NCBI GenBank assembly: GCA_003252295.1
Contig: QKEV01000008.1
Coordinates: forward strand, 21,574-85,573
Length of the DNA stretch: 64,000 nucleotides
Source of the DNA: a bacterium
GTDB taxonomy: Bacteria > Patescibacteriota > Minisyncoccia > Phycocordibacterales > UBA12088
Direction of reading: 5' to 3'
The translations under genes were made by a program, and so were the position numbers. Shown here one piece after another: positions 38,756 through 62,012 of the stretch. The number at the start of each line of letters is the position of its first letter. Within the stretch, counting starts at the first letter, position 1. Below the pieces are notes generated by a model that saw nothing but the letters and a program-made list of their open reading frames with translations, was not told the DNA's origin and searched no databases.

Positions 38756-39926
38756 TACGCAGCAAAAGAAAAAGATTTTTATTCTTAATTACGATTGGCG
38801 TAACATCTTTCAGGATGACAGAGACGAGGTTTTTGAGAAATTACAGAGGGACATGTTTAACCCTGAGGTAAATGAGTTCTTCTTCTTTTCTTGGGCAAAG
38901 AGGTCATACAGTGAGTGTCGTGATACATGGTGCACGGTACACAAGAAAACCTTTGGTCTTGAAAAACTGCGACCACTCTTGAACCTGTGGGCATTTTTCT
39001 CAGTCCCCCTTACGGTGTATAGGCAGAAGGTGCGACCTGATGTGTGGGTGGTGTATGACTTTGGTATGGTACCTGCCGTATGGCTTGCGAGTAAACTTTT
39101 CGGTGGGGTGTTCGTTATGTACGTAAACAACCAAGCACAGATATACTCTGAGACACGGCGTTTTGGAAAAATAAAAGGTGCTTACTCGTGGGTGGCTGAG
39201 CGGATAGGTGCACCTTTTGTGAAGTACTTTTTTACTATCAACGAGACAATGTGTGATTACCTTATAGGTCTTGGTGCAAAGAGGGAGAACATTACTATCT
39301 ACAACGTAAACACTATAAACCGTGACAAGAAATATATAATGCAAGCTAAGGATGGGGTAATACGAACACGTTACAACATTCCACAAGAGACAAAGGTACT
39401 CATGGCAGTAGCTCGCCTAGAGGCAGAAAAAAACTATCCATTACTCATTGAACTTTTTGCAAAACTTTCAAAAGATCATGTGCTGTTTTGTCTTGGTATG
39501 GGAAGTCTTGAGAAGGAGTTAAAAAAACAAGCAGAAGCACTTGGTGTACGGGAGCGTATCTTTTTCCCGGGGTTTGTGGAACGTAACGATATTTGGAACT
39601 ACTACAAAGATGCGGATGTCTTCGTGTTGCTTTCAAAAGCCGAGGCGCTTGGTATAGTTTTCTGGGAAGCAATGTATGTAAACGTGCCCTGCATAGGTAG
39701 TGAAGTAGAGGGTATAATGGAGTCTCTGGGAGAGCAGGGTGAACGTGGGAAAATATGGCGCGAGCGTGAGGGTGAAGAAGGTTTTAAAAAGCTTATTGCT
39801 TTTTGTACGACAGAGAGTGAGGAAAGAAGTAAAATGGTCCAACAAGCGAAAAGTTTTGTTGAAGAACAGTTAAAGAACCATGCTACCATAAATGACTTTC
39901 TTGAAAATTTTGAATATGAAAAATAG
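38745..39926 (+). CDS. Glycosyltransferase family 4
   Basis: The C-terminus has EALGIVFWEAMYVNVPCIGSEVEG, the GT4 E-x7-E-like region. Confidence 0.7.
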   Translation: MESDTQQKKKIFILNYDWRNIFQDDRDEVFEKLQRDMFNPEVNEFFFFSWAKRSYSECRDTWCTVHKKTFGLEKLRPLLNLWAFFSVPLTVYRQKVRPDVWVVYDFGMVPAVWLASKLFGGVFVMYVNNQAQIYSETRRFGKIKGAYSWVAERIGAPFVKYFFTINETMCDYLIGLGAKRENITIYNVNTINRDKKYIMQAKDGVIRTRYNIPQETKVLMAVARLEAEKNYPLLIELFAKLSKDHVLFCLGMGSLEKELKKQAEALGVRERIFFPGFVERNDIWNYYKDADVFVLLSKAEALGIVFWEAMYVNVPCIGSEVEGIMESLGEQGERGKIWREREGEEGFKKLIAFCTTESEERSKMVQQAKSFVEEQLKNHATINDFLENFEYEK

Positions 39927-40536
39927 TTACAAACCAAGTTTACTGTACATTATTAAAGCGAGGCTCAAAGGAAAGAGTTTTGTGTATGAGTACTACTGTA
40001 AGGGTAAGAATACCTTGGACCTCGGATGTGGTGAGGGAGAGTTTTTACAACATGATAAGGAAAACATGAATGGGGTTGATCTCAACAAACGAGCTATAGC
40101 GAGGTTAGAGAGTGAGGGGTATAAGGTGAAGGAGGGAAGTGTTACAGACTTACCATATGAGAGTAATACCTTTGAAGTGGTCCATTGTCACAATGTTATT
40201 GAGCATGTTGATATAGCTACCGCATATACACTCCTTGAAGAAGCTAACAGGGTACTTAAAACTGGTGGGTATCTAGTACTTTCTTCTGAGGTAGTAACGA
40301 AAAAGTTTTGGGATACTTTTGGACATGTAAAACCATACCCACCTCATGCAGTGATAAAACTTCTGCGACCAGATAGTAGAGAAGGGTTTGATGGGGTAGA
40401 GGGTTTTGAACCAGTCGGTTTGTTTTATATAGGGGAGTACTTTAAGAATAAGGTGCTGTACCTACTCTCTTTTTGTCTTGGGTATCTAACACCTCTTTTG
40501 CGAAGAGAGTATTTCTTGGTTTTAAGAAAGCAGTAA
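39892..40536 (+). CDS. Class I SAM-dependent methyltransferase
   Basis: LDLGCGEGEF (motif I) ... VVHCHNVIEHV. Confidence 0.75.
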   Translation: MTFLKILNMKNSYKPSLLYIIKARLKGKSFVYEYYCKGKNTLDLGCGEGEFLQHDKENMNGVDLNKRAIARLESEGYKVKEGSVTDLPYESNTFEVVHCHNVIEHVDIATAYTLLEEANRVLKTGGYLVLSSEVVTKKFWDTFGHVKPYPPHAVIKLLRPDSREGFDGVEGFEPVGLFYIGEYFKNKVLYLLSFCLGYLTPLLRREYFLVLRKQ

Positions 40537-41490
40537 TTGAGATATATGAGGCAGATTTCATACGTGATTCCAGTTTACAATGAAGAAGATACTTTATCAG
40601 AATTGTATAAGGAACTTTCTAAGGTGCTTGAAAAGATTGAGTGTATTTTTGAATTGATTTTTATAAATGATGGTAGTACAGATAGTTCATTAAAAATATT
40701 AAAAGAGCTTCAAAAAGGTGACCCAAGAATAGTTATAGTAGAATTTTCAAGGAATTTTGGGCACCAGATAGCAATTACCGCTGGAATTGACTATGCGCAG
40801 GGGGATGCAGTTATTGTGATGGATGGAGATTTGCAAGATCCTCCTACTGTAAGTTTGAGATTTATTGAAGAGTGGGAAAAAGGCGCTGAGGTGGTATATG
40901 GACAAAGAAGAACCAGAAAGGACACTTGGTTTAAAGAAAAAACAGCCAATTTGTTTTATAAGGTTTTAAACTTACTTTCTGATGTAGAAATACCTCAAAA
41001 TACTGGGGATTTCAGATTGATGGACAGAAAGGTGGTTGAAGTTATAAAACAAATAAGAGAACATAATCGTTTTATGCGTGGTCTCTCTAGTTATGTTGGT
41101 TTTAAACAAAAAGCTGTTTTATTTGATAGAGATGAGCGTTACGCGGGTGTGACTCACTATCCACTTAAGAAAATGATCAAGTTATCACTTGATGCGATTA
41201 TTGGTTTTTCGACAGTACCACTTAAATTGATTAGTAGACTGGGGTTTGTTGTTTCTGGGTTAAGTATTTGTGGAATTGTATATGCTTTATTTATGAAGTT
41301 TTTCTATGCATCAATTACAGTTTCTGGATGGACCTTTCTTGTAATCTCAATCTTCTTCTTAAGTGGTATACAAATGATAATACTTGGGGTAATAGGAGGA
41401 TACTTGGGAAGAATCTATGACGAGGTTCGAAATCGTCCGCTTTATATTATTTCTCGTGTGAGTCGTGGAAAAAGTATCGAAAGCATCTAA
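40537..41490 (+). CDS. GT2 polyprenyl-phosphate glycosyltransferase (GtrB/DPM1/ArnC-like) with C-terminal TM helices
   Basis: ISYVIPVYNEEDTL...INDGSTDSS...DGDLQDPP (DxD), plus two C-terminal hydrophobic helices. Confidence 0.85.
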   Translation: MRYMRQISYVIPVYNEEDTLSELYKELSKVLEKIECIFELIFINDGSTDSSLKILKELQKGDPRIVIVEFSRNFGHQIAITAGIDYAQGDAVIVMDGDLQDPPTVSLRFIEEWEKGAEVVYGQRRTRKDTWFKEKTANLFYKVLNLLSDVEIPQNTGDFRLMDRKVVEVIKQIREHNRFMRGLSSYVGFKQKAVLFDRDERYAGVTHYPLKKMIKLSLDAIIGFSTVPLKLISRLGFVVSGLSICGIVYALFMKFFYASITVSGWTFLVISIFFLSGIQMIILGVIGGYLGRIYDEVRNRPLYIISRVSRGKSIESI

Positions 41491-41491
41491 T

Positions 41492-43222
41492 ATGAAGCAC
41501 TTTATTTCGTACTCGCTAATCGGTGTTGTTGGAGCAACATTAGATTTTGTTTTGTTTTTGTTACTTTTGCGTATCGGTATATATTATCAATTTGCAAATT
41601 TTTTTAGTACTTGTGCAGGTATTTTTAATAATTTTTTTCTTAATTCTTACTTTAATTTTAAAAAAACGGATAAATTATTACTCCGACTCGCAAGCTTTTT
41701 TAGTGTTGGACTTTTAGGTCTTGCAGTAACTACTTTGTTGCTTGCATTTTTTGTGGGTGTGCTTGACCTTAATGCTGGTTTTGTTAAATTTTTTTCAATT
41801 GGAGTTATTACTGTAGTGCAGTTTACACTCAATAAACATATTACTTTTCGTAACAGAAAAAAAGTACCTCAAGGAATTCCACGAGGGCATGTTGCGATAA
41901 TAGGGGGTGGTTTTACAGGACTTGTTGCTGCATACGAACTTTCAAAGTATGAACATATACAGGTAACTTTATTTGAGGGAGGTAAAGAAGTTGGTGGGTT
42001 GGCTGCATCAACAAAAATAGAGAATGAGTCAATTGAGGCGGCTTACCATCACACATTTATGGGTGACAAGGAACTCAAAAGACTTTTAATAGAACTTGGG
42101 ATAGAAAAACAAATGCAATGGTTACCAAGTAGTGTAGGGTTATATGTTGGAGGTACAATGTATTCTTTCATGGGAGCTATCGATTTACTCCGTTTCAAAG
42201 CATTGCCTTTTTTTGATCGTTTACGTACAGGTGTTATTTCAGTTATGTTACAGATGTTGCCATGGTGGGAATGCTTAACTACTCAAAAGGCATATACCTG
42301 GGTCTATCGTTGGTATGGAAAACGAGCAAGTCAAGTTATATGGGGTCCACTATTGCAGGCAAAATTTTCTACATACTATAAAGATATATCCATGGCGTGG
42401 CTTTGGGCACGATTACATAGCCGTGGCGCTTCACGGAAAAATATTTTTTCAAAGGAGCTACTCGGTTACCCTAAAGGCGGGTACCAAGTAATCGTTGCAG
42501 TTATTGTTGAAGAGTTACAAAGGCGTGGGGTAAATATTTTGACGAATGCACAAATTACTTCTGTAGATAATACTTCAGTTGAATATGGTGGTATAAGCAC
42601 TAGTTTTGACAAGATACTTTTTACCACCTCATCAAAGGTTGCTTCTCAACTTATCAAACCATCAGTTATTAGTAAAGAATATAGATGGTACAAGGAAAAG
42701 TTGAGCTCAATCCATTACATTTCTGCCGTGACACTTTTATTTTCTTCAACTCAAAATATAAGTTCATATTATTGGAATACTGTTGCTGACGATTCAATTC
42801 CATTTCTTGTTTTTATTCAGCATACCAAACTTGTGTCTAAGGGTAACTATGGTGGTAATCATGTATATTATATTGGATCATATCTTTCTAATAATGATAA
42901 ACAATTAACAATGAAAGATGAGGAGTTGATTAATTATTGGTTTTTGGGTTTAAAGAAAATGTTTCCTCATTTTGATCGTTCGTGTGTAAGGGAGAAACAG
43001 TTATTTCGTTTTTCGAATGCACAACATGTCGTTGACACTTCTTATGTATCGCGTATACCTTCTTATCAAACTCCGCTCCCAAATGTATTTATTGCAAACT
43101 TTTCTCAAATTTTTCCTGAGGATCGTGGTATAAATTATGCTGTACGAGAAGGTAAACGTGTTTCTGAATATATGATAAATTCTTTAACTGAACAAAAAGA
43201 TACTAATGATATAAAGGGATAA
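41492..43222 (+). CDS. Fusion protein: GtrA-like membrane domain + NAD(P)/FAD-dependent oxidoreductase (amine-oxidase/UGM-like fold)
   Basis: The N-terminal ~130 aa have 4 TM helices with the GtrA-family pattern (SYSLIGVVGATLDFVLF...). Then VAIIGGGFTGLVAAYEL (GxGxxG) follows. It is a paralog of 47648..49228. Confidence 0.65.
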   Translation: MKHFISYSLIGVVGATLDFVLFLLLLRIGIYYQFANFFSTCAGIFNNFFLNSYFNFKKTDKLLLRLASFFSVGLLGLAVTTLLLAFFVGVLDLNAGFVKFFSIGVITVVQFTLNKHITFRNRKKVPQGIPRGHVAIIGGGFTGLVAAYELSKYEHIQVTLFEGGKEVGGLAASTKIENESIEAAYHHTFMGDKELKRLLIELGIEKQMQWLPSSVGLYVGGTMYSFMGAIDLLRFKALPFFDRLRTGVISVMLQMLPWWECLTTQKAYTWVYRWYGKRASQVIWGPLLQAKFSTYYKDISMAWLWARLHSRGASRKNIFSKELLGYPKGGYQVIVAVIVEELQRRGVNILTNAQITSVDNTSVEYGGISTSFDKILFTTSSKVASQLIKPSVISKEYRWYKEKLSSIHYISAVTLLFSSTQNISSYYWNTVADDSIPFLVFIQHTKLVSKGNYGGNHVYYIGSYLSNNDKQLTMKDEELINYWFLGLKKMFPHFDRSCVREKQLFRFSNAQHVVDTSYVSRIPSYQTPLPNVFIANFSQIFPEDRGINYAVREGKRVSEYMINSLTEQKDTNDIKG

Positions 43223-43226
43223 TTGT

Positions 43227-44888
43227 ATGTTATTTGATTTTGGTTCAATTAAAAAACATGGAATGATCGTCACCTTTCTTTTTGTCTGGACTTGCCTACA
43301 TGTGGTTGGTGTTACTTATGGTACCCATAATCTTCCATTACACCAGTCATATATAGGAGATGAACAAGCTCCAGTAAATGGTGCTTTGCATATCTTGCAA
43401 GATAAAAGTTTGTTAGCTGTACACAATTTAAAAACCTTATACTATGGTCCAGTTTTTGCGGTCTTTGCGTTACCAGCTGTAGTATCTGATTTTACTGTAC
43501 GGTTTGTGACAGGTGAGGTTTCTGGTGCTGATGATTATAAAAATTTTATTTTGTGGAATTGGGGAGGAATAGTTCTTGGTATACGGATTACAGCAACACT
43601 GGTAAGCTTAATGACTCTCATATTTGTGTACAAAATATTGTCCTTAGAAAGTATTAATGAAAAGAAGGATATGTTATTAGCTTTTTTTGGTACAACAATC
43701 GTTGGTTTAAATTTTTATTTTTTTGAATATTCACATTTTTTTAAACATTGGGTCTTTGTGATTTTCTTTTTGGTGGCACAAATATATTTTGCATTACGTT
43801 TACGTGAGGTAGATGGTAAAAGAAGTATCTACTGGATTTTGCATGGTATATGCTTTGTTTTAAGTTTCGGTATTAACTATTTGAGCGCTATATACGCAAT
43901 AGCTTTTCTACCACTACTTTATCTTTTGTGGATTAAAAAAGATAAAGTAGCAAGAAAATATATCTACCTTTATGTGGGTGGTGTGTCATTTACATCATTA
44001 CTAATATTGTTGTGGCATCCCTATGCCTTTTTAAGATATTTAGGTTTTTTAAATATAGGTGATGTAACTTCAGGAGGTGTTGGGAATACCTATAATCCGG
44101 TAACCTCCGTGGATAATTCATGGGGGTATTACTTAACAGAAATATTTTTCAATAATCTTCCTTTAGTTATTGGTGTATTAATTTTGCTATACTTACTGTA
44201 TAAAAGAGGTGTTATAAAAAAACAACTCTATTGGTTGTGGATGTTTATAAGCATTGCTTTAATAAACATGTTAGTCTTCTGTCCATCAACACATCATGAA
44301 GGGAGGTACATGCTTCCAACTATTATGATGTTACTTTTGTTGACAGGTGTTGCGTTGGTTAAATTTATAAACAATATCAAAAATCACGAGTTAGTGATCT
44401 TTCGTTTAGTATCTCTATTGTTAATTTTATATATTGGTTTTCATGTTGTGCATATCGGAAAATGGATAGAAATATATGCCCAAGGTCCGGTTGAAAAAGA
44501 GATATTAAAAGAAATATTTGAAAGGCAGGAAAAAAATGAAGACTTGTCTACAAATCCCGTTTTGCTTATACAGTCATATATTGCAGGTAATGTGCATACC
44601 AAAGAAGCATATGAGTTTTATATTGAAAAGAGGGGACGTGAAGATATGAATTTATATAAAGCGATAATGTCTGCACCACTCCCTGATAATATAGATTTAC
44701 TAAATGCACGTTATGTTTTTGATCAAGATCTACCTCAGGGGTATTTAGAAATTTCTGAATATGAAATGGTGTACCAGTATCTTACACCTAGATCTAAGGA
44801 ACTTAACTTGTTTGATTATTTTGATGAGAATCTGTTGAGACTTTGGTATTGGAAAAGTTTTTCTCCAAGGTATGTAAGAATAAAGTAA
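43227..44888 (+). CDS. Polytopic membrane protein, probable GT-C glycosyltransferase (ArnT/PMT-like)
   Basis: About 12 TM helices. There is an N-terminal loop with GDEQ (DE-type motif). Its position is after the GT2 + GtrA genes. Confidence 0.5.
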   Translation: MLFDFGSIKKHGMIVTFLFVWTCLHVVGVTYGTHNLPLHQSYIGDEQAPVNGALHILQDKSLLAVHNLKTLYYGPVFAVFALPAVVSDFTVRFVTGEVSGADDYKNFILWNWGGIVLGIRITATLVSLMTLIFVYKILSLESINEKKDMLLAFFGTTIVGLNFYFFEYSHFFKHWVFVIFFLVAQIYFALRLREVDGKRSIYWILHGICFVLSFGINYLSAIYAIAFLPLLYLLWIKKDKVARKYIYLYVGGVSFTSLLILLWHPYAFLRYLGFLNIGDVTSGGVGNTYNPVTSVDNSWGYYLTEIFFNNLPLVIGVLILLYLLYKRGVIKKQLYWLWMFISIALINMLVFCPSTHHEGRYMLPTIMMLLLLTGVALVKFINNIKNHELVIFRLVSLLLILYIGFHVVHIGKWIEIYAQGPVEKEILKEIFERQEKNEDLSTNPVLLIQSYIAGNVHTKEAYEFYIEKRGREDMNLYKAIMSAPLPDNIDLLNARYVFDQDLPQGYLEISEYEMVYQYLTPRSKELNLFDYFDENLLRLWYWKSFSPRYVRIK

Positions 44889-44924
44889 AGACACTTTTTA
44901 GTATATGATATTTATTTAATTTTT

Positions 44925-45848
44925 ATGTCAGAAAATATCGAAAAAAATTTTGTTCATATAATTGGAATTGGAGCTTACAAAGCAGCAAGCACTTGGGTGC
45001 ACACATGTTTACGTGAACACCCAGAAATATGTACAGCAACACTTAAGGAGACAAATTTTTTTGGTTCAAATTTTGAAAAAGGGTTTGATTGGTATAAAGG
45101 TCTTTTTGGTGATTATAAAGAAAAAGAACATTTACGTGCTGAATTTTCTCCTGAATATTTAGTAAACAAGGAATCTGCAGGAATGATAAAGATGTATGCA
45201 CCAGACGCAAAACTTATAGTAAGTTTACGAAATCCAATAAATAAAATCTCATCTCGTTATTATTATGATATAACAATTGGAAAGAAAAAACAGAGATTAG
45301 GTTTGAATGAGTGGTTAGAAAAAAACATCGAAAAGCCTAGTAAGTATTTTTTATCTGTTCTTGAGGAAAACAAATACTCCAGTGGTCTGAAGTTGTATTA
45401 TAGTCTTTTCCCAAAAGAACAGATATGTATTGTTTTGGTAGATGATATTAAGAAGGATCCTAAAATGGTGATCAGTAAAATATATAGTTTTCTTGAAGTT
45501 AATAGTACTTTTATTCCTGAAAGTTTGGAAAAAAAAGTAAATTTTACTACTGCAGATACTGTACATTTTCCTGCAATTAATAGATTTCTTTTTCAAATAC
45601 AGGCGAAGGTTAAGAATAGTCATTACGCTAATTTTTTTGTTCCAATGCTTAAGTTTTGTGGTTTTAATTTTCTTGCTAAGAAGCTTTTTCACATAAACAG
45701 AAATCATAAGGATGAAAATCATAGGGAATTAAAAAAGGAAAAAATAAGACAAGATTTAAGAAGAGAATTATATTCTCTTTTTGAGAATGATATCAAGGAA
45801 ACAGAAAAGCTGATTGGTAAAAAACTAGATGGTTGGAAAATTGATTAA
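44925..45848 (+). CDS. Sulfotransferase (PAPS-dependent)
   Basis: The 5'-PSB-like motif is YKAASTW (K-x-x-S/T-T-W). The 3'-PB-like motif is SLRNPINKISSRYYY (RNPxDxxxSxY). Confidence 0.65.
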   Translation: MSENIEKNFVHIIGIGAYKAASTWVHTCLREHPEICTATLKETNFFGSNFEKGFDWYKGLFGDYKEKEHLRAEFSPEYLVNKESAGMIKMYAPDAKLIVSLRNPINKISSRYYYDITIGKKKQRLGLNEWLEKNIEKPSKYFLSVLEENKYSSGLKLYYSLFPKEQICIVLVDDIKKDPKMVISKIYSFLEVNSTFIPESLEKKVNFTTADTVHFPAINRFLFQIQAKVKNSHYANFFVPMLKFCGFNFLAKKLFHINRNHKDENHRELKKEKIRQDLRRELYSLFENDIKETEKLIGKKLDGWKID

Positions 45849-45986
45849 ATTAATCAACATTTTTAAATTCCTTATTCTCTATATAAGAGCTTTAAAATAA
45901 GAGGAGATAACAGAAAGCGGTTATGGACACTTCTTGTTTTTGTTATGTGGTGGAAAAAATGGGTGAAAAAAAACGATTAAAGTGTT

Positions 45987-47027
45987 TTATGAAAGCCACT
46001 TTAAAATCTTAATCACTCCCATTTTAGCGTTTTGTTTATGTGCAGACACGTTTTGACGTGTTGCAATGGAAGTTTTGTTCTCATGGTAATACTTGTATGC
46101 CTCAAGAAGCATGTCTTCGTTGGTGTGGGTTGGTTGCCAATCCATCTCCTTCTTTATCTTGGCTGTGTCAAAAATAAAGTCTTCAGCTATCATCTTGTAT
46201 TGATAAGGACCAAGTGGTGATAATCCAAGTTTGTGTGCTAGACGCATAACCCACAAAATGAGTTTACGCGGTAGCCCTCTCACCTTTGATGTGGAATTGG
46301 TGTGTGTGATGACGTACTCATACACCTCCTTAAAACTTTTTACATTATCACTACCAATGTTGTAAATAACAGTTTTTTGTACATCAAGTGCTTTCAGGCA
46401 TGCATTAACAAGATCGTCTGCATAAATAAATTGGTATTTATTTTTACCACCACCTACAACCCAGACAATTCGGTTTTCATCCATAAACTCATACAAGATT
46501 GATAAAAGACCTAAACGACCTGCAGATATAATCGTTGGGCATCGAAACATTACTGAATGAATATGGTTACTGTATTCTGTGAGAATTTTCTCACCCTCAA
46601 CTTTTGTTTTACCGTAAATCTCAACAGGATTTGGTGTGTCTGTTTCTAGTACTGGTCGCCCCATAGGTTCACCCCAAAGGCAGTTGCTCGAGATAAAGAT
46701 AATTTGATCTGTGCCATGTTTCCTACACATTTCCGCAATGTTGCGTGTTCCATCGACGTTTGATTCCCATAAAAATTGCTTATCTTTTGCAATGTGTGCT
46801 AGCTGTGCCGCCAGATGAAATACACCATCAAATGGTCCATGTGCGCTAAAAATACTATCTAGGAGTTTCTGGTCTCGTATATCGCCGACGATACTTACCA
46901 GGTTGGTGTGTATCTTATCGTCGGGTTCTAGATCAATGTTTACAACACGGTGTCCATCCTTAAGGAGACGTTCTTTTAGAATCGTGCCAAAAAAACCTGA
47001 GCCACCTGTAATCAAAAAACTCTTCAT
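45987..47027 (-). CDS. NAD-dependent epimerase/dehydratase (extended SDR)
   Basis: FLITGGSGFFGT Rossmann motif and YGKTK (YxxxK). Confidence 0.85.
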   Translation of the reverse strand: MKSFLITGGSGFFGTILKERLLKDGHRVVNIDLEPDDKIHTNLVSIVGDIRDQKLLDSIFSAHGPFDGVFHLAAQLAHIAKDKQFLWESNVDGTRNIAEMCRKHGTDQIIFISSNCLWGEPMGRPVLETDTPNPVEIYGKTKVEGEKILTEYSNHIHSVMFRCPTIISAGRLGLLSILYEFMDENRIVWVVGGGKNKYQFIYADDLVNACLKALDVQKTVIYNIGSDNVKSFKEVYEYVITHTNSTSKVRGLPRKLILWVMRLAHKLGLSPLGPYQYKMIAEDFIFDTAKIKKEMDWQPTHTNEDMLLEAYKYYHENKTSIATRQNVSAHKQNAKMGVIKILKWLS

Positions 47028-47054
47028 ATTCTCTATCCTATCATAATAATGTCC

Positions 47055-47492
47055 TTATATTCGGTTATCTGAAAATGCAAAGAACTTTATTGCAAAAAAA
47101 TTAACAAAAAAACCAACCACCAGCGCAATACCTTTTGCCGGCATAACTTCGCAGGACGCGCCCTCAACTAATGCTATCACAACCAATAAATTAACGAGTA
47201 GACCAAAACCACTTGAAGCATAGTGTTTAATACATGTTCGAGTCCATGATGAGGAACGAGCAAAGACAAACTTATTTGAAAAGAGAAAGTTGGTCATTGT
47301 TCCTGACATAAAACCTGCGAAAACTGCAACAGTGTAGTGTACAAAAGGAACTTTTAGTACGAGATACACTGACAAAAGGTCTACGCATGCTGAAACAATA
47401 CTTACAAACAAGTAACGAAATAGTTGCCAAGTAAGGAATTTTGGAAATGGTACTGTAAGCAGTTTTTCTTGTAGATGGGTGTAAATGTTCAC
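47055..47492 (-). CDS. GtrA-family polysaccharide-synthesis membrane protein
   Basis: 145 aa with 4 TM helices. GtrA-like motifs (RYLFVSIVSACVDLL...FLFSNKFVF). Confidence 0.75.
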   Translation of the reverse strand: MNIYTHLQEKLLTVPFPKFLTWQLFRYLFVSIVSACVDLLSVYLVLKVPFVHYTVAVFAGFMSGTMTNFLFSNKFVFARSSSWTRTCIKHYASSGFGLLVNLLVVIALVEGASCEVMPAKGIALVVGFFVNFFAIKFFAFSDNRI

Positions 47493-47647
47493 GTACCTAC
47501 AATAATAATATATTTACAGTATGTTAACTACGTTTTATATGTAATTTCTATGATTGAGTATGAGTTTAGATGGAACTATAAGGATGGTATACTGGAATTA
47601 TTAAAGCAGTAAGCCAAATTCTAAGCTAATTCGGAATATTTATCATT

Positions 47648-49228
47648 ATGAAAAAGAAAGCAGTAATTATAGGTGGTGGTCCTGCAGGTCTAACAGCAGC
47701 GCATGAGTTGCTTGCTACTACTGATATACATCCTGTGGTGTTTGAGAAGGGTGAAATGTTTGGTGGTATAGCAAGAACAGAGAACTATAAAGGCAACAGG
47801 ATAGATATCGGTGGACATCGTTTTTTCTCAAAATCAGACAGGGTGATGGATTTCTGGCGAGCTTTTCTACCTGTTCAAGGGTACCCTGCGCAGGATGAGA
47901 TCAAACTTGGAGTAAAGAAGAGAGAAGAGTTTGTGTCAGATGGACCAGATCCGGAAAAAACTAACAATGTTATGTTGATACGTAGCAGACTGTCGAGGAT
48001 ATTTTACCTACGTAAGTTTTTTGACTATCCTGTAACGCTCAGTAAAAACACGTTACTCAACTTGGGTATAGTGAGAGTTGCTCGCATAGGTTTCAGCTAC
48101 ATAAAGATACGACTGTTTCCAAGAAAAGAAGAGAATTCGCTCGAAGACTTCTTTATTAACCGCTTTGGTGTTGAACTGTATAAAACTTTTTTTAAGGATT
48201 ACACGGAAAAGGTGTGGGGAATTCCTTGTACAAAGATAAAGGCAGAGTGGGGTGCACAGAGAATAAAAGGTCTATCTGTTACGAAGACTGTTTTACACGC
48301 ACTGCGTTCAGTACTTCCTAAGAGGAAAAGTATTGAGCAGAAAGATACTGAAACAAGTCTCATCGAAACATTTCTCTACCCTAAGCTTGGTCCGGGACAG
48401 ATGTGGGAGTCTGTAGCTCAAAGCATCATTGAAAGTGGTGGAGAAACTATCCTTAATAGTGAGATAGTGCGTATAAAGCTGCAAGGTAAAAAAGTTGTGT
48501 CGGTAACAGTAAAAGACAGAGGAAGTGGTAAAGAAGAAAGTGTTCCTGCTGACTACATCTTTTCAACCATGCCGATAAAAGAACTCATCACTTCCATGGA
48601 AGGTAGTGTTCCTGAAAGGGTGCATACTCTTGCGAAGGGACTTGAGTATAGGGACTTTATGACGGCTGGGTTGTTGCTCAACAAACTAAAGATTAAAAAC
48701 GAGACAAACATTAAAACAGTGGGGAACATCATTCCTGATAATTGGATATATATCCAAGAGCCGGATGTGAAGGTGGGAAGACTTCAGTTTTTTAACAACT
48801 GGAGTCCATATCTAGTGAGCAATGCAAACAAAGTCTGGATTGGGATGGAGTACTTTGCGAGTGAAGGGGATAAGCTTTGGTCGATGAGTGATGAAGCATT
48901 TTTAGAATTTGCAAAAGAGGAGCTTGCAAAGATAGGTATTTCTGATGAGAGTGATGTGGTAGATGGGGTGGTGATACGCGCTCCTAAAGCATATCCATCG
49001 TATACCGGAGAAGGGTATGACCACTTTAGTGAGATACGAGACTTTTGTGACAGTATTGAGAACTTGTACTTGATAGGTAGGAACGGTATGCATAAGTACA
49101 ACAACCAGGATCATTCAATGCTTTCAGCTTTTGAGGCAGTACGTCATATCCGTGAGAATTTGAAGACAAAAGAAAACATTTGGAACGTAAATGCGGAAAA
49201 GGAATATCATGAGGAGAAAAGTTCATAG
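47648..49228 (+). CDS. NAD(P)/FAD-dependent oxidoreductase (amine-oxidase/UDP-galactopyranose-mutase-like fold)
   Basis: [17 protein letters not shown] ... GGHRFFS. The family is shared with the C-terminal domain of 41492..43222. Confidence 0.7.
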
Positions 49229-50678
49229 CATACTACAGTCAGTCAAAGAGTATGTAGATCGTTCCCCAAAGATGTTCATCTTTTCGGGGTCTTTGCTATG
49301 GCTCTCAGTTGTTGTTCCTTTCATTTATACCTTTGGTAACATGCCGAGTACTATTCCTGTTTTACCAGGTGACCCTGGTGAGTATGTTGTTTTAGGTAAC
49401 GCTATCTTGAACCATGAGGTGTACAGTTTGTCTGAAGGTAATGAGAAGTTTTTTGATAGTTTCCGCACACCCGGGTATCCGGTTTTTATCGCATTAGTGT
49501 CAGACCTGTTTGGCTCACTAGACTATGTTATAGTCGTGCAACTACTTCTCTACGCTGCCTCTGCGGTACTCATCTTTAGTCTAGGAGAAATACTCTTTGA
49601 TAGGAAAGTTGCGTGGCTTACAACGATTCTGTGGATGATAAATCCTTCCGGAATATTTCATGCTTCATTTATTTGGACTGATTTCTTTTTTACTTTTGTA
49701 CTACTACTTTCTATCTCTACAGCTCTGTGGGCATATGCCAGTAAGGGGTATACTCACATACTCACTATTGCTTCAGGGTTGCTGCTTGGCTACGCGATTC
49801 TTGTGAGGCCTGTTGCTCAGTTTCTGCCCGTAATGGTCTTTCTCATACTTGCATTACTGTTGCTGTCTAAAGTGACAAGGTGTTTTGTTGGTAAAAAAGG
49901 TTTGCTACTGATTTTTCTGTGGTTTGTTTCTTGTGTGGTTGTTGTCTCACCATGGTCAGTGAGGAACTATGTACGCTTTGATACCTTTGAAATCTCTTCA
50001 GTGAGCGCCTTTAATCTTCTCTACTACAACCTTACCGAGCATAATGCATACGAGAAGGGACTGCCTACTCCTGAGCAGCTAATCCCAGAAAGTGTCCCAT
50101 CGTATGATAAATCCCTGTTCCGGTCTTTTGTGTACCAAGAGTTGTATACAAATATTGCGAAGCGTTACCTACAGGAACATTGGTTTTCATATTTGAAATT
50201 TCATTTAGTAAAAACTACAGCATTCTTCATCGCTCCAAGTTATACCGATCTTGGCTTACTATTTTTCCCAGACATCGAGAAGACGTACAGAAGCGTTAGT
50301 TTGTCTTCGATAGCGTTGCATTTTGATGTAAAAAGTCTTTTCTCTCTCGTGTACTCACAAGTGAAGGTAGGGGACTACTCTTTTGTTTTGTACTTGGCAA
50401 ATGCTGTCTTTTGGGTGTACCTCTTCATGTTCTCTACCGTGACTCTAGTTGTCTCTCTACTTAAAAAACCAAGAACAATGGAAACTTTTGTGATACTTTC
50501 GTTTGCGCTCTTGGTGTTATACTTTGCAGTACTCACTGGTCCGGTAGCAATAGCTAGGTATCGGTTGCCCGTTGAGCCGTATGTTCTACTCACCGCTGTG
50601 GCTGGATGCACGTACTTGTGCAGGTACCTGAAGAGTGGAAGGTTGAGTATGAAAAAGAATGGTTACGTAGGTATGTAA
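49191..50678 (+). CDS. Polytopic membrane protein, probable GT-C glycosyltransferase (ArnT/PMT-like); start uncertain (alt. 49269)
   Basis: About 11 TM helices. There is a conserved RTPGYP loop and a DxxE-like motif (DPGEY). It overlaps the upstream gene by 38 nt if the start is taken at 49191. Confidence 0.5.
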
Positions 50679-56946: not shown

Positions 56947-59628
56947 ATGTGGATAGTAGACAGAGTTTTAAAAAATAATGTTATTTTAATAATATTAATA
57001 GTTCTTTATTTTTTTAACATGTTTTTTAGAAGAGTTTTAATAAAAAATATCATACAACTGTTTGTGTTGTCTGTTGTTGCCGCTGCTCCAAGTGATTTTT
57101 TATTTGCAGAAGAAATACAGACCATTAAAAGTGATGTATCATTATCGGATGGTTTAGTATCGTATTGGTCAATGGATGAGGAAATTGGTATCAGAAAAGA
57201 CATTGTAGGAGGAAATGATTTAATACCAGAAGGAAACGTGATAGGAATTTCAGCGGTACAAGGATATGGTGCTGATTTTGTAAAGAATAATATTGAATCA
57301 CTGTATGTAGAACATGTTCCTGAATTAGAACCAGGTAGTGATTACAGTATTTCTCTTTGGTACAGACATGATAGTTCTGAATATAATGTTCAAAGTGTAA
57401 TTTCAAAGGATGGTGTGAATCCATTAAAAGGATACACTTTATTTACAGATGATGGTTCTATTTTGTATATGACACATCAGAATATAACCACGTTGCATGG
57501 TCCAACCCTTGAAGTTGGTAAGTGGTATCACATTGTCGCAACACATGATGCTACAAATAATTTAAATTTTCTATACGTAAATAATTCTGCACCTTATACA
57601 GTACCTGGTGGGTATTTGGATTCCGAAGGAGCGACTTTAAGAGTAGGTGGATATAACTATAATACAAATTATTATTCTGACGGTGCAGTTGATGAGTTAG
57701 GTTACTGGAATCGGGTACTTACTCAGGAGGAGGTAGGTCGTTTGTATAACGAAGGTGAAGGTGTGCCATATGATGTTAGTAATGAAGATGTTGACGATGG
57801 GGTGTCGTCTGTAGCTTTTATTCCAGGTATTACAGGTAGTAGGTTATACGTAAATAGTTTATTTGGTGAAGATAAGTTGTGGGAGTCAATACGTTTAGGT
57901 GATTTGAGTGATATTGGTTTTACTAAAGATGGTGTGAGTGAGCGAAATGATGTATATACGAGAGATGTTGTGGAAACACTTCGCCCAGTAGTTGAGTGGT
58001 GGGATTACGCAGAGGGGTATAGTGATTTTATGGAATATCTCAATATCCTTACTCAAGAAGGTTTAATAAATGAATGGGAGGCACTTCCATATGATTGGCG
58101 TATGGCAACCGATAAACTTTTTCACTATGGTGAAAATTTGGGTAATGGAAATATTTCATATCTGACAGGTGAGCAAGATGAACCATACATTATTACTCGA
58201 CTAGAAGAACTTGCAGAAAACTCTCAAACAGGAAAGGTGACTATTGTTGCGCACAGTAATGGTGGTTTAGTAGCGAGAAATCTTTTGAAGTATTTACAAG
58301 ATACAAATCATCCTTTGTTTGAAAAAATTGATAAAGTGATACTTGTTAGTTCACCACTTCTTGGCACCCCTAAAACTATTGGAGAATTATTGCATGGTAC
58401 GACTAATATCGTAGAAGGTGCCACACGGGACGCAATGGAAAATATGCCAGGGGTGTATGGGTTGTTGCCATCGCAAATACTTATGAGTAATTTAAATGAC
58501 CCGGTAGTTGAAGTAGATTATCTTGCTCAAATTGAAAATCCATTTAAGAATTTTTACGATACAAAAATAACAACATATGATGATCTTGTGGCGTTCTTGC
58601 TTGGCGAATTGGCGCCTAGAAATGAACCAGATAGTACTGAGACATGGATGCCAAATATACTTAACAAAACTATTCTAGAGGATGTACGGAGTATGCATAG
58701 TGGTGTCGACAGTCAAGATTTTCCTGAAAATATTGAGGTGGTGTCGATCATAGGAACTGATCTTCCAACCGCTCGTGCTGTTCGATATACAAATTGTCTT
58801 GAGTATCATGTTGCATGTGTGGGAAAGGAGAGCGAGACATTACATGAATGGCTTTTTACTACAAGAGGTGACGGAACAGTTGTTACAACCTCGGCAAAGG
58901 GTGGTGTTGGGGTAGATAAAACAGTGTTTGTTTCACTTACAAAAATTGGTAAGGATGAAGGTGAAAATTATAGACATGCCACCATATTGTCTTCTTTATA
59001 TGTGCAAAATGTGATTAAGAGTGTGCTTTTGGGAATGAGTGATGAAATTGAAGGTGGAACTGAAGGTGTGAATACTGTAAAACGAATAGAACTCAAAGTG
59101 TATTCGCCTGTTGATGTGCATTTCTATAAAGATGATAACCATACCGGTGTGGTTAAAAATGGTGAAGAAAATGATTTTGGTAGGGAGTATGAACAAGAAG
59201 TACCAACATCATACTATCGTGAATGGGGTGAGGTTACTTACTTAGGAACCGAGTTGTATGATGATAATCTGGACATAACTTTTAAAGGGAAAGAAGTGGG
59301 TATGTTCACTTTAACGTTTGATGTGTATTTAGGGGAAGAATTACTTGATTCATATATATTTAAAGATATTCCTGTGAATTCAAAGACGGAAGGTTGGATT
59401 GAATTGACTGAAGGTGGGGAACCAATTTTGCACTATGATGGTGATGGAGATGGGGAAATCGATTTTACATTGAAACCGGATGATAGTATTCCTGATTCAC
59501 TTAGGAAATGGGTAAGAAACAAATTTCGTGTGATAGCAGAACTTATGCAACAAAAAGGAAAAGGTGTTGCAATAGCAATTGAAAGTCAGTTTAGTGAGAT
59601 ATCTCATAAGTTACAAAAAACATATTAA
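56947..59628 (+). CDS. Secreted/membrane-anchored protein: LamG-like (concanavalin-A-like lectin) domain + alpha/beta-hydrolase (lipase/PGAP1-like) domain
   Basis: N-terminal TM/signal. LamG_3-like block (SISLWYRHDSS...GKWYHIVATHDATNNLNFLYVNN). GxSxG nucleophile context IVAHSNGGLVARNLL. Confidence 0.5.
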   Translation: MWIVDRVLKNNVILIILIVLYFFNMFFRRVLIKNIIQLFVLSVVAAAPSDFLFAEEIQTIKSDVSLSDGLVSYWSMDEEIGIRKDIVGGNDLIPEGNVIGISAVQGYGADFVKNNIESLYVEHVPELEPGSDYSISLWYRHDSSEYNVQSVISKDGVNPLKGYTLFTDDGSILYMTHQNITTLHGPTLEVGKWYHIVATHDATNNLNFLYVNNSAPYTVPGGYLDSEGATLRVGGYNYNTNYYSDGAVDELGYWNRVLTQEEVGRLYNEGEGVPYDVSNEDVDDGVSSVAFIPGITGSRLYVNSLFGEDKLWESIRLGDLSDIGFTKDGVSERNDVYTRDVVETLRPVVEWWDYAEGYSDFMEYLNILTQEGLINEWEALPYDWRMATDKLFHYGENLGNGNISYLTGEQDEPYIITRLEELAENSQTGKVTIVAHSNGGLVARNLLKYLQDTNHPLFEKIDKVILVSSPLLGTPKTIGELLHGTTNIVEGATRDAMENMPGVYGLLPSQILMSNLNDPVVEVDYLAQIENPFKNFYDTKITTYDDLVAFLLGELAPRNEPDSTETWMPNILNKTILEDVRSMHSGVDSQDFPENIEVVSIIGTDLPTARAVRYTNCLEYHVACVGKESETLHEWLFTTRGDGTVVTTSAKGGVGVDKTVFVSLTKIGKDEGENYRHATILSSLYVQNVIKSVLLGMSDEIEGGTEGVNTVKRIELKVYSPVDVHFYKDDNHTGVVKNGEENDFGREYEQEVPTSYYREWGEVTYLGTELYDDNLDITFKGKEVGMFTLTFDVYLGEELLDSYIFKDIPVNSKTEGWIELTEGGEPILHYDGDGDGEIDFTLKPDDSIPDSLRKWVRNKFRVIAELMQQKGKGVAIAIESQFSEISHKLQKTY

Positions 59629-59687: not shown

Positions 59688-62012
59688 GTGACAAGTATGT
59701 TACGACGACGGTGTCGTGGTATAGTAGTGACCATGTTAAAAAGCACACTTCGATGGGTAGCTATAGCAGGTATTTTTGCGATACCGGTTATTCTGCCATT
59801 CATCGTTTCTTCGTCAATGTTCTTTCCATTCATTACGGGAAAGAATTTCACTTTTAGAATACTAGTAGAAATAGTTTTAGGAGCGTGGGCGGTACTTGCC
59901 TTCATGGACGCACGATATCGACCCAAGTTCTCTTGGGTACTGGCAACAGTAACCCTGTTTGTTCTCATTATTGGACTTGCTGACTTTACCGGCAGTAATG
60001 TCTTCAAAAGTTTTTGGAGTAACTTTGAACGTATGGAGGGATACATTGCAGTATTGCACCTCTTTGCTTACTTCATAGTGGCTGGAACAGTACTCAGTAC
60101 AGAGAAACTTTGGAAGGTATTCTGGTACGCATCTCTCGGAGCAAGTGTGCTTGTAGCTATCGTTGGTCTTGGTCCTATTTTTGACGACCCAACACACTTT
60201 TACCAAGTGCGAATAGAAGCTCGTTTTGGAAACCCTATCTACCTTGCAGTGTACTCACTCTTCCATGCCTTCATCGCACTCATTCTAGCAGAAAAGTGGC
60301 GCGGGATAGTGTGGCACCGAGTGTTGCTGATAGCGGTTGCAGTACTGCATATGGTCATTGTGGTTCTTACCCAGACTCGTGGTACGACTTTTGGTTTACT
60401 CGGCGGTCTCATGGTTGCTACATTACTCATCGCAATCTTTGAACGGGAACGAAAGGCACTCAGGGTAGGAGCAATTGCCGTACTCTTAGCTGTAGCAACA
60501 CTCGTTGGAACAGGATATGCAATAAAGGATACTAACTACGCAAAGACAACGCCGATTCTTGGCAGGTTCACACAGATAGAGCTCACAACAGGTACGGTAC
60601 ACGCTCGTTTTATGAACTGGGGTATGGCATGGCAGGGAGCAAAGGAACGACCGATACTAGGATGGGGACAGGGTAACTACGAGTATGTGTTCTCAAAATA
60701 CTTTGACCCAGGTATGTATGGTGAAGAGCCATGGTTTGACCGTACACACAACATTTTCTTTGACTGGCTCGTTGCAGCAGGTTTTCTTGGTCTCCTCTCT
60801 TACCTACTCATGCCCGCATCGCTCTTGGTGAGCTTGTGGACAGTAGATAGAGAGAATCTAGAAGGTCGTAAGTGGTCACTGAAAAAGTTACTAAGTTTTG
60901 AAACCATAAAGAACATCTTTGTGAAGCGTGATCATGCGTTTACTCCTACAGAGCGTGCGCTCTGGACAGGGCTTGTGGCTGCATACATGTTCCATAACCT
61001 CTTTGTATTTGATAATATCATCAGCTACATCCTTTTCTTCTCAGTACTTGCATACATTCACTTTAGGGTGACGGAGGATGATAAGTCACTATGGAACGAT
61101 GTAACCATCTCTGAGGAAACAATCACTACAGCGGTAATGCCGGTAACACTCGTCGTCGTTGGACTCTTGATATGGTATATAAATGTTCCAGGTATCAAGA
61201 CATCGCAAGCACTCATTGATGCTCTACAACCTCAAAAGACCCTTCCGACGGGGCAGGTGGTACAGCAGACACCTGAGGATGTGTTAGCTCACTACAAGCG
61301 TGCACTTGACTATGACCAGCTCGGTCGTCAGGAAGTGCGAGAACAAGCTGCACAAATGGCTGCAAACTTCCAACGAAACGAGAATGTGTCACAGGACACT
61401 AAGGTCGCTTTCAAGAATCTTGCGATGGCGGAAATGCAAAAGGAAGTAGACCGTAACCCAAACTCAGCACGTCTTGAACTCTTCATGGCAGCACTCTATG
61501 GCGGTTATGGACAGCTCGATAAGGCAGAGGAAACATTTAAGAGAGTTCTGGAACTTGCGCCAAGAAAACAGATTGTCATGTTCCAGTTAGGTGAGGTGCT
61601 TACTCTTGAAGGTAAAAATGATGAAGCGGTAGAGGTTCTCAAGGAGGCGTATGAAGCTGAGACGGAGTTCAGTGAAGCTGCTTCACGGTATGCTGCTGCT
61701 CTCATACGTGCTGGACGAGACAAGGAAGCTGTCGACTTTATAACAGAACGTTTTGGTGATGTAACATACGACGACGGACGGGTCTTTGGTGCGTGGATGC
61801 AGGCAAAACGTTACGACATTATTGCAGCCATTCTTGAGAACAGGATAGCTGCAAACCCTGATGACCTGCAGCAGTACGTTTCTCTTGCTGTTGCTTACAA
61901 TGAATTGGGAGAGTCAGAAAAGGCTATCGCTATACTTGAAGGTGTAAAGGATGACCACCCAGAGTATACCGATCAGATGGATACATTTATAAAAGAAATT
62001 CGCGGCTGGTAG
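59688..62012 (+). CDS. O-antigen-ligase-like (Wzy_C) polytopic membrane protein with C-terminal TPR repeats
   Basis: About 12 TM helices in the N-terminal 450 aa. The C-terminal ~250 aa are helical repeats (TPR-like). An alternative start is at 59733. Confidence 0.6.
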   Translation: MTSMLRRRCRGIVVTMLKSTLRWVAIAGIFAIPVILPFIVSSSMFFPFITGKNFTFRILVEIVLGAWAVLAFMDARYRPKFSWVLATVTLFVLIIGLADFTGSNVFKSFWSNFERMEGYIAVLHLFAYFIVAGTVLSTEKLWKVFWYASLGASVLVAIVGLGPIFDDPTHFYQVRIEARFGNPIYLAVYSLFHAFIALILAEKWRGIVWHRVLLIAVAVLHMVIVVLTQTRGTTFGLLGGLMVATLLIAIFERERKALRVGAIAVLLAVATLVGTGYAIKDTNYAKTTPILGRFTQIELTTGTVHARFMNWGMAWQGAKERPILGWGQGNYEYVFSKYFDPGMYGEEPWFDRTHNIFFDWLVAAGFLGLLSYLLMPASLLVSLWTVDRENLEGRKWSLKKLLSFETIKNIFVKRDHAFTPTERALWTGLVAAYMFHNLFVFDNIISYILFFSVLAYIHFRVTEDDKSLWNDVTISEETITTAVMPVTLVVVGLLIWYINVPGIKTSQALIDALQPQKTLPTGQVVQQTPEDVLAHYKRALDYDQLGRQEVREQAAQMAANFQRNENVSQDTKVAFKNLAMAEMQKEVDRNPNSARLELFMAALYGGYGQLDKAEETFKRVLELAPRKQIVMFQLGEVLTLEGKNDEAVEVLKEAYEAETEFSEAASRYAAALIRAGRDKEAVDFITERFGDVTYDDGRVFGAWMQAKRYDIIAAILENRIAANPDDLQQYVSLAVAYNELGESEKAIAILEGVKDDHPEYTDQMDTFIKEIRGW

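Follow-up and report, generated by a model that had tools for sequence, protein, structure and literature searches.

Two distinct glycosylation modules with a putative donor-preparing flavoprotein, one of them fused to GtrA, in a patescibacterial surface-glycan island

Introduction

Three-component systems are a main bacterial route for decorating O-antigens, teichoic acids and glycoproteins. Those of the GtrABC type (CsbB/GtcA/YfhO of Gram-positive bacteria; PgfS/PgfM of Streptococcus mutans) combine a family 2 glycosyltransferase (GT2) with C-terminal membrane helices, a four-helix GtrA protein and a GT-C transferase, and their main review names no oxidoreductase, mutase or fusion. Few auxiliary enzymes are known to remodel the lipid-linked sugar, namely ArnD, DprE1/E2 and ORF13; ArnD is one precedent for sugar modification on the lipid carrier. 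DprE1/E2 and ORF13 provide precedents for donor modification on the carrier before flipping (PMC11127046, PMC11194591). Here we describe a 64,000-nucleotide stretch of patescibacterial DNA (hereafter the window; positions 21,574 to 85,573 of contig QKEV01000008.1, assembly GCA_003252295.1, Phycocordibacterales UBA12088), in which two GtrA-containing modules each carry, in addition, a flavoprotein of the superfamily that includes protoporphyrinogen oxidase (PPOX), phytoene desaturase (PDS) and UDP-galactopyranose mutase (UGM). In one of the modules this flavoprotein is fused to GtrA.

As in the GtrABC type, the window encodes a GT2 with C-terminal membrane helices, a four-helix GtrA and a GT-C protein, within a surface-glycan locus that has Wzx and Wzy-like genes; unlike in that type, the flavoprotein is a conserved fourth component, at times fused to GtrA, to GT2 or to the membrane protein. 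The Arn pathway (ArnC/ArnD/ArnEF/ArnT) and the pentofuranose systems (DprE1/DprE2; ORF13 of Citrobacter youngae) are similar in that the lipid-linked sugar is, or may be, modified before its use by GT-C, and the window's GT2 gives full-length NCBIfam alignments to ArnC (1e-53) as well as to PgfS (6e-83), both under the equivalog cut-offs. In contrast to these systems, the modifier here has the PPOX/PDS/UGM flavoprotein fold and is not a deformylase, a vanillyl-alcohol oxidase (VAO)-type oxidase or a short-chain dehydrogenase/reductase (SDR); unlike in the pentofuranose systems, there is no phosphoribosyl-pyrophosphate-dependent polyprenyl-phosphoribose synthase here and the SDR is no conserved partner. 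Lastly, in dolichyl-phosphate mannose synthase (DPMS) of archaea and eukaryotes a four-helix GtrA/DPMS domain is likewise joined to a cytoplasmic polyprenyl-phosphate enzyme, and the DPMS structure PDB 5mlz is a weak match to the N-terminus of the fusion, but there the transmembrane domain stands at the C-terminus of a GT-A transferase, whereas here it stands at the N-terminus of a flavoprotein. What is new here is the kind of auxiliary enzyme and its fusions, within known GtrABC/Arn-type glycosylation.

Results and Discussion

Two distinct module types in one window

Each module would combine a GtrABC/Arn-like set (polyprenyl-phosphate GT2, GtrA and GT-C) with a PPOX/PDS/UGM-superfamily flavoprotein that prepares the sugar donor. 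We are highly confident of the overall architecture of the modules. The complete reading, in which two non-paralogous four-component modules for extracytoplasmic glycosylation, each with a donor-preparing flavoprotein, lie in a Wzx/Wzy-type surface-glycan island, is one that we regard as evenly balanced between right and wrong. The parts are as follows, and genes are named below by their start coordinates:

40537..41490, plus strand: GtrB/ArnC/PgfS-like GT2, a predicted polyprenyl-phosphate glycosyltransferase (Pfam Glycos_transf_2, 1.2e-33)
41492..43222, plus strand: fusion open reading frame (ORF) of 576 aa, GtrA domain plus flavoprotein domain (Pfam, NCBIfam)
41492..41875, plus strand: GtrA domain of the fusion, four transmembrane helices (Pfam GtrA_DPMS_TM, PF04138, aa 16-128, 1.3e-20)
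41885..43222, plus strand: family-1 flavoprotein domain of the fusion, PPOX/PDS/UGM superfamily (NCBIfam PRK07233; Amino_oxidase/NAD_binding_8, aa 145-570)
43227..44888, plus strand: module-1 GT-C fold glycosyltransferase, a polytopic membrane protein of 553 aa (structure comparison)
47055..47492, minus strand: stand-alone GtrA of module 2 (GtrA2), divergent from the flavoprotein gene (PF04138 GtrA_DPMS_TM, 1.5e-15; about 4 hydrophobic segments)
47648..49228, plus strand: family-2 flavoprotein, a relative of eukaryote-type UGM (NCBIfam PRK07208.1-2, 1e-250)
49191..50678, plus strand: module-2 polytopic membrane protein of 495 aa, probably GT-C (PMT_2-like; sub-threshold PMT_2 and PMT matches)

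A sequence-only reading of the window had described a duplicated module of GtrA, oxidoreductase and GT-C that resembled GtrABC-type lipid-linked sugar transfer. All the ORFs that it named were recovered, and the likeness to GtrABC systems was borne out by the identification of a GtrB/ArnC-like GT2, GtrA and GT-C. The duplication held at the level of domain families, in that the same three parts occur twice, but not in the sense of paralogous copies. Pairwise BLASTP aligned only a 59-aa Rossmann segment of the two flavoproteins, gave E=0.004 over 56 aa for the GtrA pair and returned no significant alignment between 43227 and 49191 (E=0.59). In addition, the fusion falls in the curated family PRK07233 (4e-121, above cut-off) and 47648 in PRK07208.1-2. 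On these two grounds a recent duplication of the module was ruled out. Profile-profile comparison with hhalign matched the flavoproteins at 98-99% probability and 18-19% identity, so that they are best described as homologous but distant relatives, and the modules as two distinct, co-occurring types and not paralogues.

Genes of the two families were also found close together, only a few genes apart, in further loci (L038, L071, L076, L078, L081 and L108), in genomes that include Planctomycetales, Acutalibacteraceae and Acidobacteria. Since the families are neighbours elsewhere too, their co-occurrence in the window may be functional.

Conserved gene neighbourhoods of the flavoproteins

The gene neighbourhoods of both families were compared in 162 non-redundant loci (79 of family 1 and 83 of family 2), many of whose contigs are incomplete, so that the counts are underestimates. 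The canonical family-1 operon consists of GT2, GtrA, the flavoprotein and a membrane protein of about 500 aa, and in locus L126 these four genes, the last of them encoding 501 aa, all overlap start-to-stop. The family-2 layout is simpler, with GtrA (not always present), the flavoprotein and a membrane protein. GtrA was fused or directly adjacent in 46/79 family-1 and 16/83 family-2 loci, and a GT2 (about 320 aa in the family-1 loci) lay at most two genes away on the same strand in 51/79 and 4/83, respectively. A large membrane protein was adjacent in 24 of the 79 family-1 and 48 of the 83 family-2 loci, figures that rose to 41 and 64 when up to three genes of distance were allowed. Additionally, a methyltransferase gene follows the flavoprotein gene in L007 and L008. 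Cultured bacteria with such flavoproteins include Hydrotalea flava, Taibaiella lutea, Puia dinghuensis, Microbacterium ginsengisoli, Kolteria novifilia and Desulfonema ishimotonii. Each module type was found again in dozens of unrelated loci, which excludes a chance arrangement, and the conserved synteny together with multiple fusions (see below) marks the flavoprotein as an integral fourth part of glycosylation with polyprenyl-phosphate sugars and no chance neighbour.

This bears on the simplest alternative, namely that both flavoproteins are housekeeping protoporphyrinogen oxidases or carotenoid desaturases which happen to lie beside glycosylation genes. The source annotations (JGI) do read 'protoporphyrinogen oxidase', and pairs of GT2 and CrtI-like genes are found in carotenoid glycoside clusters. 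However, the flavoproteins do not reach the cut-offs of the curated models (PPOX TIGR00562, 41.4 bits against a cut-off of 97.85; PDS TIGR02731, 26.9 against 569.4; HpnE, 61 against 283) and have just the general fold in common with these enzymes, no phytoene or squalene synthase was present among the called neighbours, and the association with GtrA, GT2 and membrane proteins extends across phyla and includes multiple independent fusions to these partners. Owing to this synteny and these fusions, a housekeeping role is effectively refuted, and we leave it next to no probability.

The GtrA::flavoprotein fusion is genuine, rare and recurrent

The fusion of GtrA to a flavoenzyme, which the sequence-only reading had called unusual, proved to be real. 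Its N-terminus matches GtrA, and it is a single ORF. The stretch from the final GtrA helix to the Rossmann strand HVAIIGGG has no ATG, GTG or TTG in frame; separate translation of the flavoprotein is therefore not possible. An independent re-assembly (Logan) returned the identical 576-aa protein. Homologues with the same fusion occur at 36-39% identity, namely P0003, P0044, P0060 and P0086, and further P0321 and P0322. Taken together, the sequence across the junction, the agreement of the re-assembly and the occurrence of independently fused homologues exclude a frameshift or assembly artefact as the origin of the fusion. When only the junction was used as a query against 1.84 billion representatives, no more than a handful of 50%-identity clusters covered both sides, and the fusion is on this account rare but recurrent. 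In the AlphaFold2 model, the GtrA helices (2-27, 32-54, 62-90 and 95-117) have a predicted local distance difference test score (pLDDT) of about 90 and the flavoprotein domain is confident (pLDDT 92.8; predicted template modelling score 0.82), with the basic linker at pLDDT 62-75.

The linker contains one further feature:

41857..41863, plus strand: A7 homopolymer in the 12-aa basic linker (RKKVPQGIPRG) of the fusion (sequence read directly)

A -1 slip at this tract would terminate GtrA after '...RKKYLKEFHEGMLR', and the flavoprotein would then lack a start codon. The tract could be a site of slippage or phase variation, or merely a spot prone to indel errors.

With 47% identity, the flavoprotein domain of the window is closer to unfused relatives than to the other fusions (36-39%), and the P0044 domain shares 75% identity with the unfused P0119. 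Because the nearest relative of each fused protein is an unfused one, these identities imply several independent fusion events, four or more of them besides that of the window. In this regard, the commonest layout has GtrA as a gene of its own, with a stop that overlaps the flavoprotein start, as in L126, which makes a fusion easily achieved; by ORF calling, GtrA and the flavoprotein were truly fused in 3/79 family-1 loci, the GtrA gene being mostly separate and abutting. N-terminal 'extensions' in L110, L121, L131 and others were rejected as over-extended ORF calls, having no transmembrane segments.

Other fusions tie the flavoproteins to the same set of partners. Pfam searches identified a 1447-aa GtrA::FAD1::GT2::GT2 protein (P0323; FAD1 and FAD2 denote the flavoproteins of families 1 and 2), the last GT2 of which is of the processive type, a 651-aa GT2::FAD1 protein (P0448) and a 732-aa FAD1::S-adenosylmethionine (SAM) methyltransferase (P0382). 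In family 2, the order is reversed in a 679-aa FAD2::GtrA protein of Nostoc sp. (L073, 6995-9034; GtrA 1.3e-18), and a 1063-aa protein of Puia dinghuensis (L060, 7001-10192) joins FAD2 to a C-terminal, unannotated nine-helix domain of 530 aa. GtrA is also fused to GT-C-like proteins, five of them members of the 43227 family.

The other GtrA::flavoprotein fusions lie in a different conserved cluster (L001, 4600-13927; L003, 5589-12461; L137, at about 6977), with a double GT2 of 700-830 aa that has a processive-synthase-type domain, followed by PMT_2::GH8 fusions of 878-926 aa and, in L003, also by a GH6. This cluster looks like a distinct, glucan-type system.

The family-2 flavoprotein resembles eukaryote-type UGM

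The PRK07208-type family is very large, with at least 8000 candidates at E ≤ 1e-5, and highly conserved. The best 120 matches are 59-67% identical and come from Firmicutes, Bacteroidota, Proteobacteria, Cloacimonadota, Cyanobacteria/Melainabacteria and others, and family-2 loci were also found in Saccharibacteria and in a Methanobacterium. In the latter, the archaeal methanogen Methanobacterium sp. MZD130B (L030), the flavoprotein is 59% identical to that of the window and GtrA is adjacent upstream; an inter-domain transfer of the pair is suggested.

The best PDB matches of 47648 are the UGMs of Aspergillus fumigatus (AfUGM) and Trypanosoma cruzi (TcUGM), at 7e-11 in a single-sequence search and 5e-17 in a profile search. 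Functional residues of UGM, with roles as listed in Table 3 of PMC3624792, were mapped on 36 family-2 sequences by hmmsearch alignment and local hhalign, and 13 of the 17 are invariant in 36/36. Among the invariant positions (36/36) are G55-G56-H57, which correspond to the eukaryote-type GGH histidine loop; this loop contacts flavin N5 and the isoalloxazine, and its double glycine is unique to eukaryotic UGMs (PMC3624792). The five diphosphate ligands are likewise kept in all 36, R205, Y368, R378, Y449 and Y484 of the window's protein being equivalent to R182, Y317, R327, Y419 and Y453 of AfUGM. Furthermore, the uracil stackers Y127 and F181 are conserved, as are T186, W190 and N486, and family 2 keeps N457 and the T/W pair of bacterial UGMs (36/36). 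Family 2 thereby shares with the eukaryote-type enzymes the histidine loop, both catalytic arginines, the three diphosphate tyrosines, the uracil-stacking aromatics, N457 and a C-terminal GR-G...NQDHS FAD motif, and differs from them in its low identity (about 20%), in an insertion of about 45 aa after the histidine loop and in the genomic tie to GtrA and polytopic membrane proteins. We know of no characterised UGM with such a tie.

Because it retains the GGH loop and the full set of five diphosphate ligands, family 2 is probably a redox-neutral mutase that converts a nucleoside-diphosphate (NDP)-sugar from the pyranose to the furanose form. A GalE-like SDR beside it fits a supply line of the galE plus glf type. 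Several observations weigh against this assignment. The protein scores 34.8 bits with TIGR00031, the curated model of bacterial UGM, under its cut-off of 303.75, and is for this reason called UGM-like and not filed as a UGM; neither flavoprotein has a Pfam GLF match. AfUGM N207 is replaced by Glu in family 2, and given this change the sugar may be other than galactose. In addition, a nucleotide furanose would need a polyprenyl-phosphate GT2, yet one lies near so few of the family-2 loci. On the sequence evidence, the eukaryote-type UGM appears to have a broad bacterial sister group.

The family-1 flavoprotein and its possible substrate

Family 1 departs from this pattern. It keeps the invariant loop histidine H186, preceded here by A-Y, as well as F66, W315 and R307, the last within an 'AWLxxR' motif. 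Only one of the five UGM diphosphate ligands is retained (R307, whose mapping to UGM R182 has low alignment confidence and weakens the comparison accordingly); Y317 is replaced by N and Y419 by Q, and there are deletions at the positions of UGM W167 and R327. In the fold search, PDS, PPOX, LkcE, monoamine oxidase and UGM obtained similar scores, family 1 being marginally nearer to PDS/PPOX than to UGM. Its invariant residues are R307, R311, K291, H186, Q511, H512, D544 and R545. The loss of the diphosphate ligands, the GT2 directly upstream in most loci and the repeated fusion to GtrA or GT2 lead us to propose, with a confidence that falls a little short of even, that family 1 acts on the polyprenyl-monophosphate sugar made by the GT2. 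Its fold, closest to PPOX and to the membrane-associated, isoprenoid-handling PDS, agrees with a lipid-linked substrate. For its chemistry we favour an isomerisation, of the ring or of a stereocentre and with no net redox change, over an oxidation, though with a confidence well below even. Overall, the two flavoproteins resemble sugar-ring mutases more than oxidases.

A different substrate would be the isoprenoid carrier itself, which family 1 might desaturate, saturate or isomerise, for instance into a dolichol-like lipid preferred by the GT-C. The likeness to PDS and HpnE suggests this, and the transmembrane domains of GtrA/DPMS do touch polyprenyl phosphate, as in the DPMS structure 5mlz. 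However, invariant residues so rich in Arg, Lys, His, Asn, Gln, Tyr and Trp are more expected of a sugar-phosphate pocket than of the hydrophobic PDS tunnel, the middle region with 'AWLxxR' aligns with family 2 and UGM and not with PDS, and to our knowledge there is no bacterial carrier lipid with a modification of such kind. We regard action on the carrier as very unlikely.

Alternatively, both flavoproteins could act on soluble nucleotide sugars, the fusion or adjacency to GtrA and GT2 serving as a membrane tether that channels an unfavoured product, such as a furanose, into the GT2. The whole UDP-diphosphate binding set of family 2, the homology of the two families found by hhalign, the 'YPF' and 'AWLxxR' motifs kept in family 1 and the GT2::FAD1 fusions in P0448 and P0323 are all in line with it. 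Nevertheless, the loss of 4/5 diphosphate ligands and the two deletions in family 1 are hard to square with binding of a nucleotide diphosphate, and a GT2 into which the product could be channelled is rarely near family-2 genes. Tethering of this kind is, in our judgement, distinctly unlikely.

The SDR and the comparison with DprE1/DprE2

One SDR gene lies between the two modules:

45987..47027, minus strand: extended SDR, GalE-like nucleotide-sugar epimerase, downstream of GtrA2 (Pfam Epimerase, 1.9e-38)

The sequence-only reading had compared flavoprotein and SDR with the oxidase plus SDR epimerisation of decaprenyl-phospho-ribose, while noting that the folds differ. The difference in fold is clear, both flavoproteins being Amino_oxidase/NAD_binding_8 proteins of the PPOX/PDS/UGM fold and not of the VAO type (FAD_binding_4) of DprE1. 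The analogy itself turned out to be weak. A mechanism like that of DprE1/DprE2, in which the flavoprotein oxidises the polyprenyl-phosphate sugar to a keto form and the SDR reduces it with inverted stereochemistry on the carrier lipid, gains from the position of SDR 45987 between both modules, from an SDR divergent from GT2-FAD1 in L007, and from family 1 being structurally nearest to flavin oxidases and desaturases and without most UGM diphosphate ligands. Lipid-linked epimerisation also has precedent in DprE1/E2 and the GalE-like ORF13 (PMC11127046). On the other side, the SDR is no obligate partner of the DprE1/DprE2 type, being at most four genes away in just 13/79 family-1 and 5/83 family-2 loci. 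The window's SDR belongs to one transcription unit with GtrA2 (module 2) and not with the fusion, and its nearest solved structures are UDP-glucose 4-epimerases (4zrm, 3.3e-23; 7ys8; 3ehe), which epimerise with no partner oxidase. Furthermore, the full UGM residue set in family 2 speaks against such chemistry. We consider an oxidase plus SDR mechanism quite improbable.

The membrane proteins and the GT-C fold

Of the two proteins that had been called GT-C-like, 43227 was confirmed by structure comparison to have the GT-C fold, and the assignment of 49191 rests on near-threshold matches. A profile of the 43227 family found no match among PDB sequences; the family is small (78 matches), its named members are Patescibacteria/Parcubacteria, and D45-E46 in its first loop are invariant, which fits the acidic motif of GT-C enzymes. 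For 49191, which has about 10 hydrophobic segments, Pfam PMT_2 (1.7e-5; 25.5 bits against a cut-off of 26.1) and PMT (7e-4) were both sub-threshold and no PDB sequence matched; a PMT_2-like GT-C identity is weakly supported by these matches. An iterated 49191 profile drifted to a hydrophobic core of 161 positions with high bias and was not used as evidence. The partner membrane proteins of other loci are diverse and mostly unannotated, with no Pfam or NCBIfam match, and hhalign comparison with the confirmed GT-C family gave 64% probability for the family-1 partners and 11% for the family-2 partners. Such diversity is typical of GtrC-type transferases and is no proof of fold.

The annotated start of 49191 falls within the flavoprotein gene, so that the two overlap by 38 nt, and may not be the true one; a second Met at 49209, seven codons further on, would shrink the overlap. 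The equivalent flavoprotein and membrane protein genes of Desulfonema (L011) overlap too.

The surface-glycan island

Two more genes belong to the module-1 operon:

39892..40536, plus strand: SAM-dependent methyltransferase (Pfam Methyltransf_11, 3.4e-17), which opens the operon with a 0-nt gap to the GT2
44925..45848, plus strand: sulfotransferase (Pfam Sulfotransfer_1, 2.5e-14; GC content 0.29), which closes the operon after a 36-nt gap

The gaps between the first five genes of this operon are 0, 1, 4 and 36 nt, and the GT2 has hydrophobic segments near its C-terminus (aa 230-291). The sulfotransferase gene, which the earlier description had missed, has the lowest GC content of the region and hints at a sulfated surface glycan; sulfated surface glycans are uncommon in bacteria other than cyanobacteria (PMC13390465). 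GC content per gene is 0.29-0.39 in module 1 and 0.37-0.42 in module 2. Along the window it falls to 0.30-0.36 at 40000-46000 (module 1), whereas it is 0.41-0.48 at 26-38 kb and 0.38-0.41 in module 2, and from its low GC module 1 may have been acquired separately.

Homologues named Patescibacteria, Parcubacteria and Dojkabacteria are in keeping with the patescibacterial origin of the window. Both modules lie in a surface-glycan island at about 28-62 kb, with seven GT4 genes, another SDR, a Wzx-type flippase, a Wzy_C/TPR protein and methyltransferases. Its flank encodes an 893-aa Laminin_G_3 plus LCAT-like (lipase/acyltransferase) protein (56947-59628) and a 774-aa Wzy_C (O-antigen ligase-like) protein with TPR repeats at the C-terminus (59688-62012).

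Proposed pathways

We infer which substrates are used, in what order the steps follow and what type of reaction family 1 carries out, as follows. In module 1, the GT2 would make a polyprenyl-phosphate sugar, and the PRK07233 flavoprotein, held at the cytoplasmic face of the membrane by its fused GtrA, would modify this lipid-linked sugar before or during its hand-over to GtrA. The GT-C 43227 would then transfer it, with further decoration by the methyltransferase and the sulfotransferase of the operon. In module 2, the GalE-like SDR would supply a pyranose nucleotide sugar, which the PRK07208 flavoprotein could convert into the furanose form by a UGM-like, redox-neutral ring contraction. A GT2, for which 40537 is the sole candidate in the window, would load the furanose onto polyprenyl phosphate, GtrA2 would handle or flip the lipid-linked sugar, and 49191 would transfer it outside the cell. 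The earlier suggestion that the fusion couples redox chemistry to membrane translocation is speculation.

Other considerations tell against these pathways as a whole. For 49191 and for most partner membrane proteins, an assignment to GT-C has weak support or none, and the neighbourhood statistics come from a simple in-house ORF caller and from hidden Markov models iterated from the window's own proteins. Full-text searches of the literature library returned no paper that mentions either flavoprotein family, and no description of them with GtrA systems. Moreover, flippase activity of GtrA has never been directly demonstrated (PMC11127046).

In a bolder version, which we find rather unlikely, both families would use covalent catalysis by flavin N5 at the membrane to produce donors that are lipid-linked furanoses or have otherwise isomerised rings. 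Family 1 would then isomerise the polyprenyl-monophosphate pyranose directly. Family 2 might do likewise, or it might act as a mutase-transferase that forms a flavin-sugar adduct from a UDP-pyranose and then passes the contracted ring to polyprenyl phosphate presented by GtrA. This version stays alive because family-2 loci rarely encode a GT2 (4/83) yet keep GtrA and the polytopic partner. If true, both families would be the first enzymes to produce lipid-linked furanoses by such catalysis at the membrane, and hexofuranosylation by GT-C enzymes outside the cytoplasm would be widespread in Acidobacteriota, Planctomycetota, Bacteroidota, Cyanobacteria, bacteria of the candidate phyla radiation and some archaea.

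Implications

PRK07208 and its sister PRK07233 are tied to GtrA, GT2 and GT-C by synteny and by at least five kinds of gene fusion, and this association provides a functional prediction for proteins now labelled 'protoporphyrinogen oxidase' or 'NAD(P)/FAD-dependent oxidoreductase'. Additionally, the repeated fusions to GtrA offer a handle on the actual role of GtrA proteins. Furanose sugars are absent from mammals, so that enzymes which make them are of interest as drug targets. The association of flavoproteins with three-component glycosylation in this patescibacterium and elsewhere points to an undescribed but widespread route of sugar preparation for bacterial cell surfaces.

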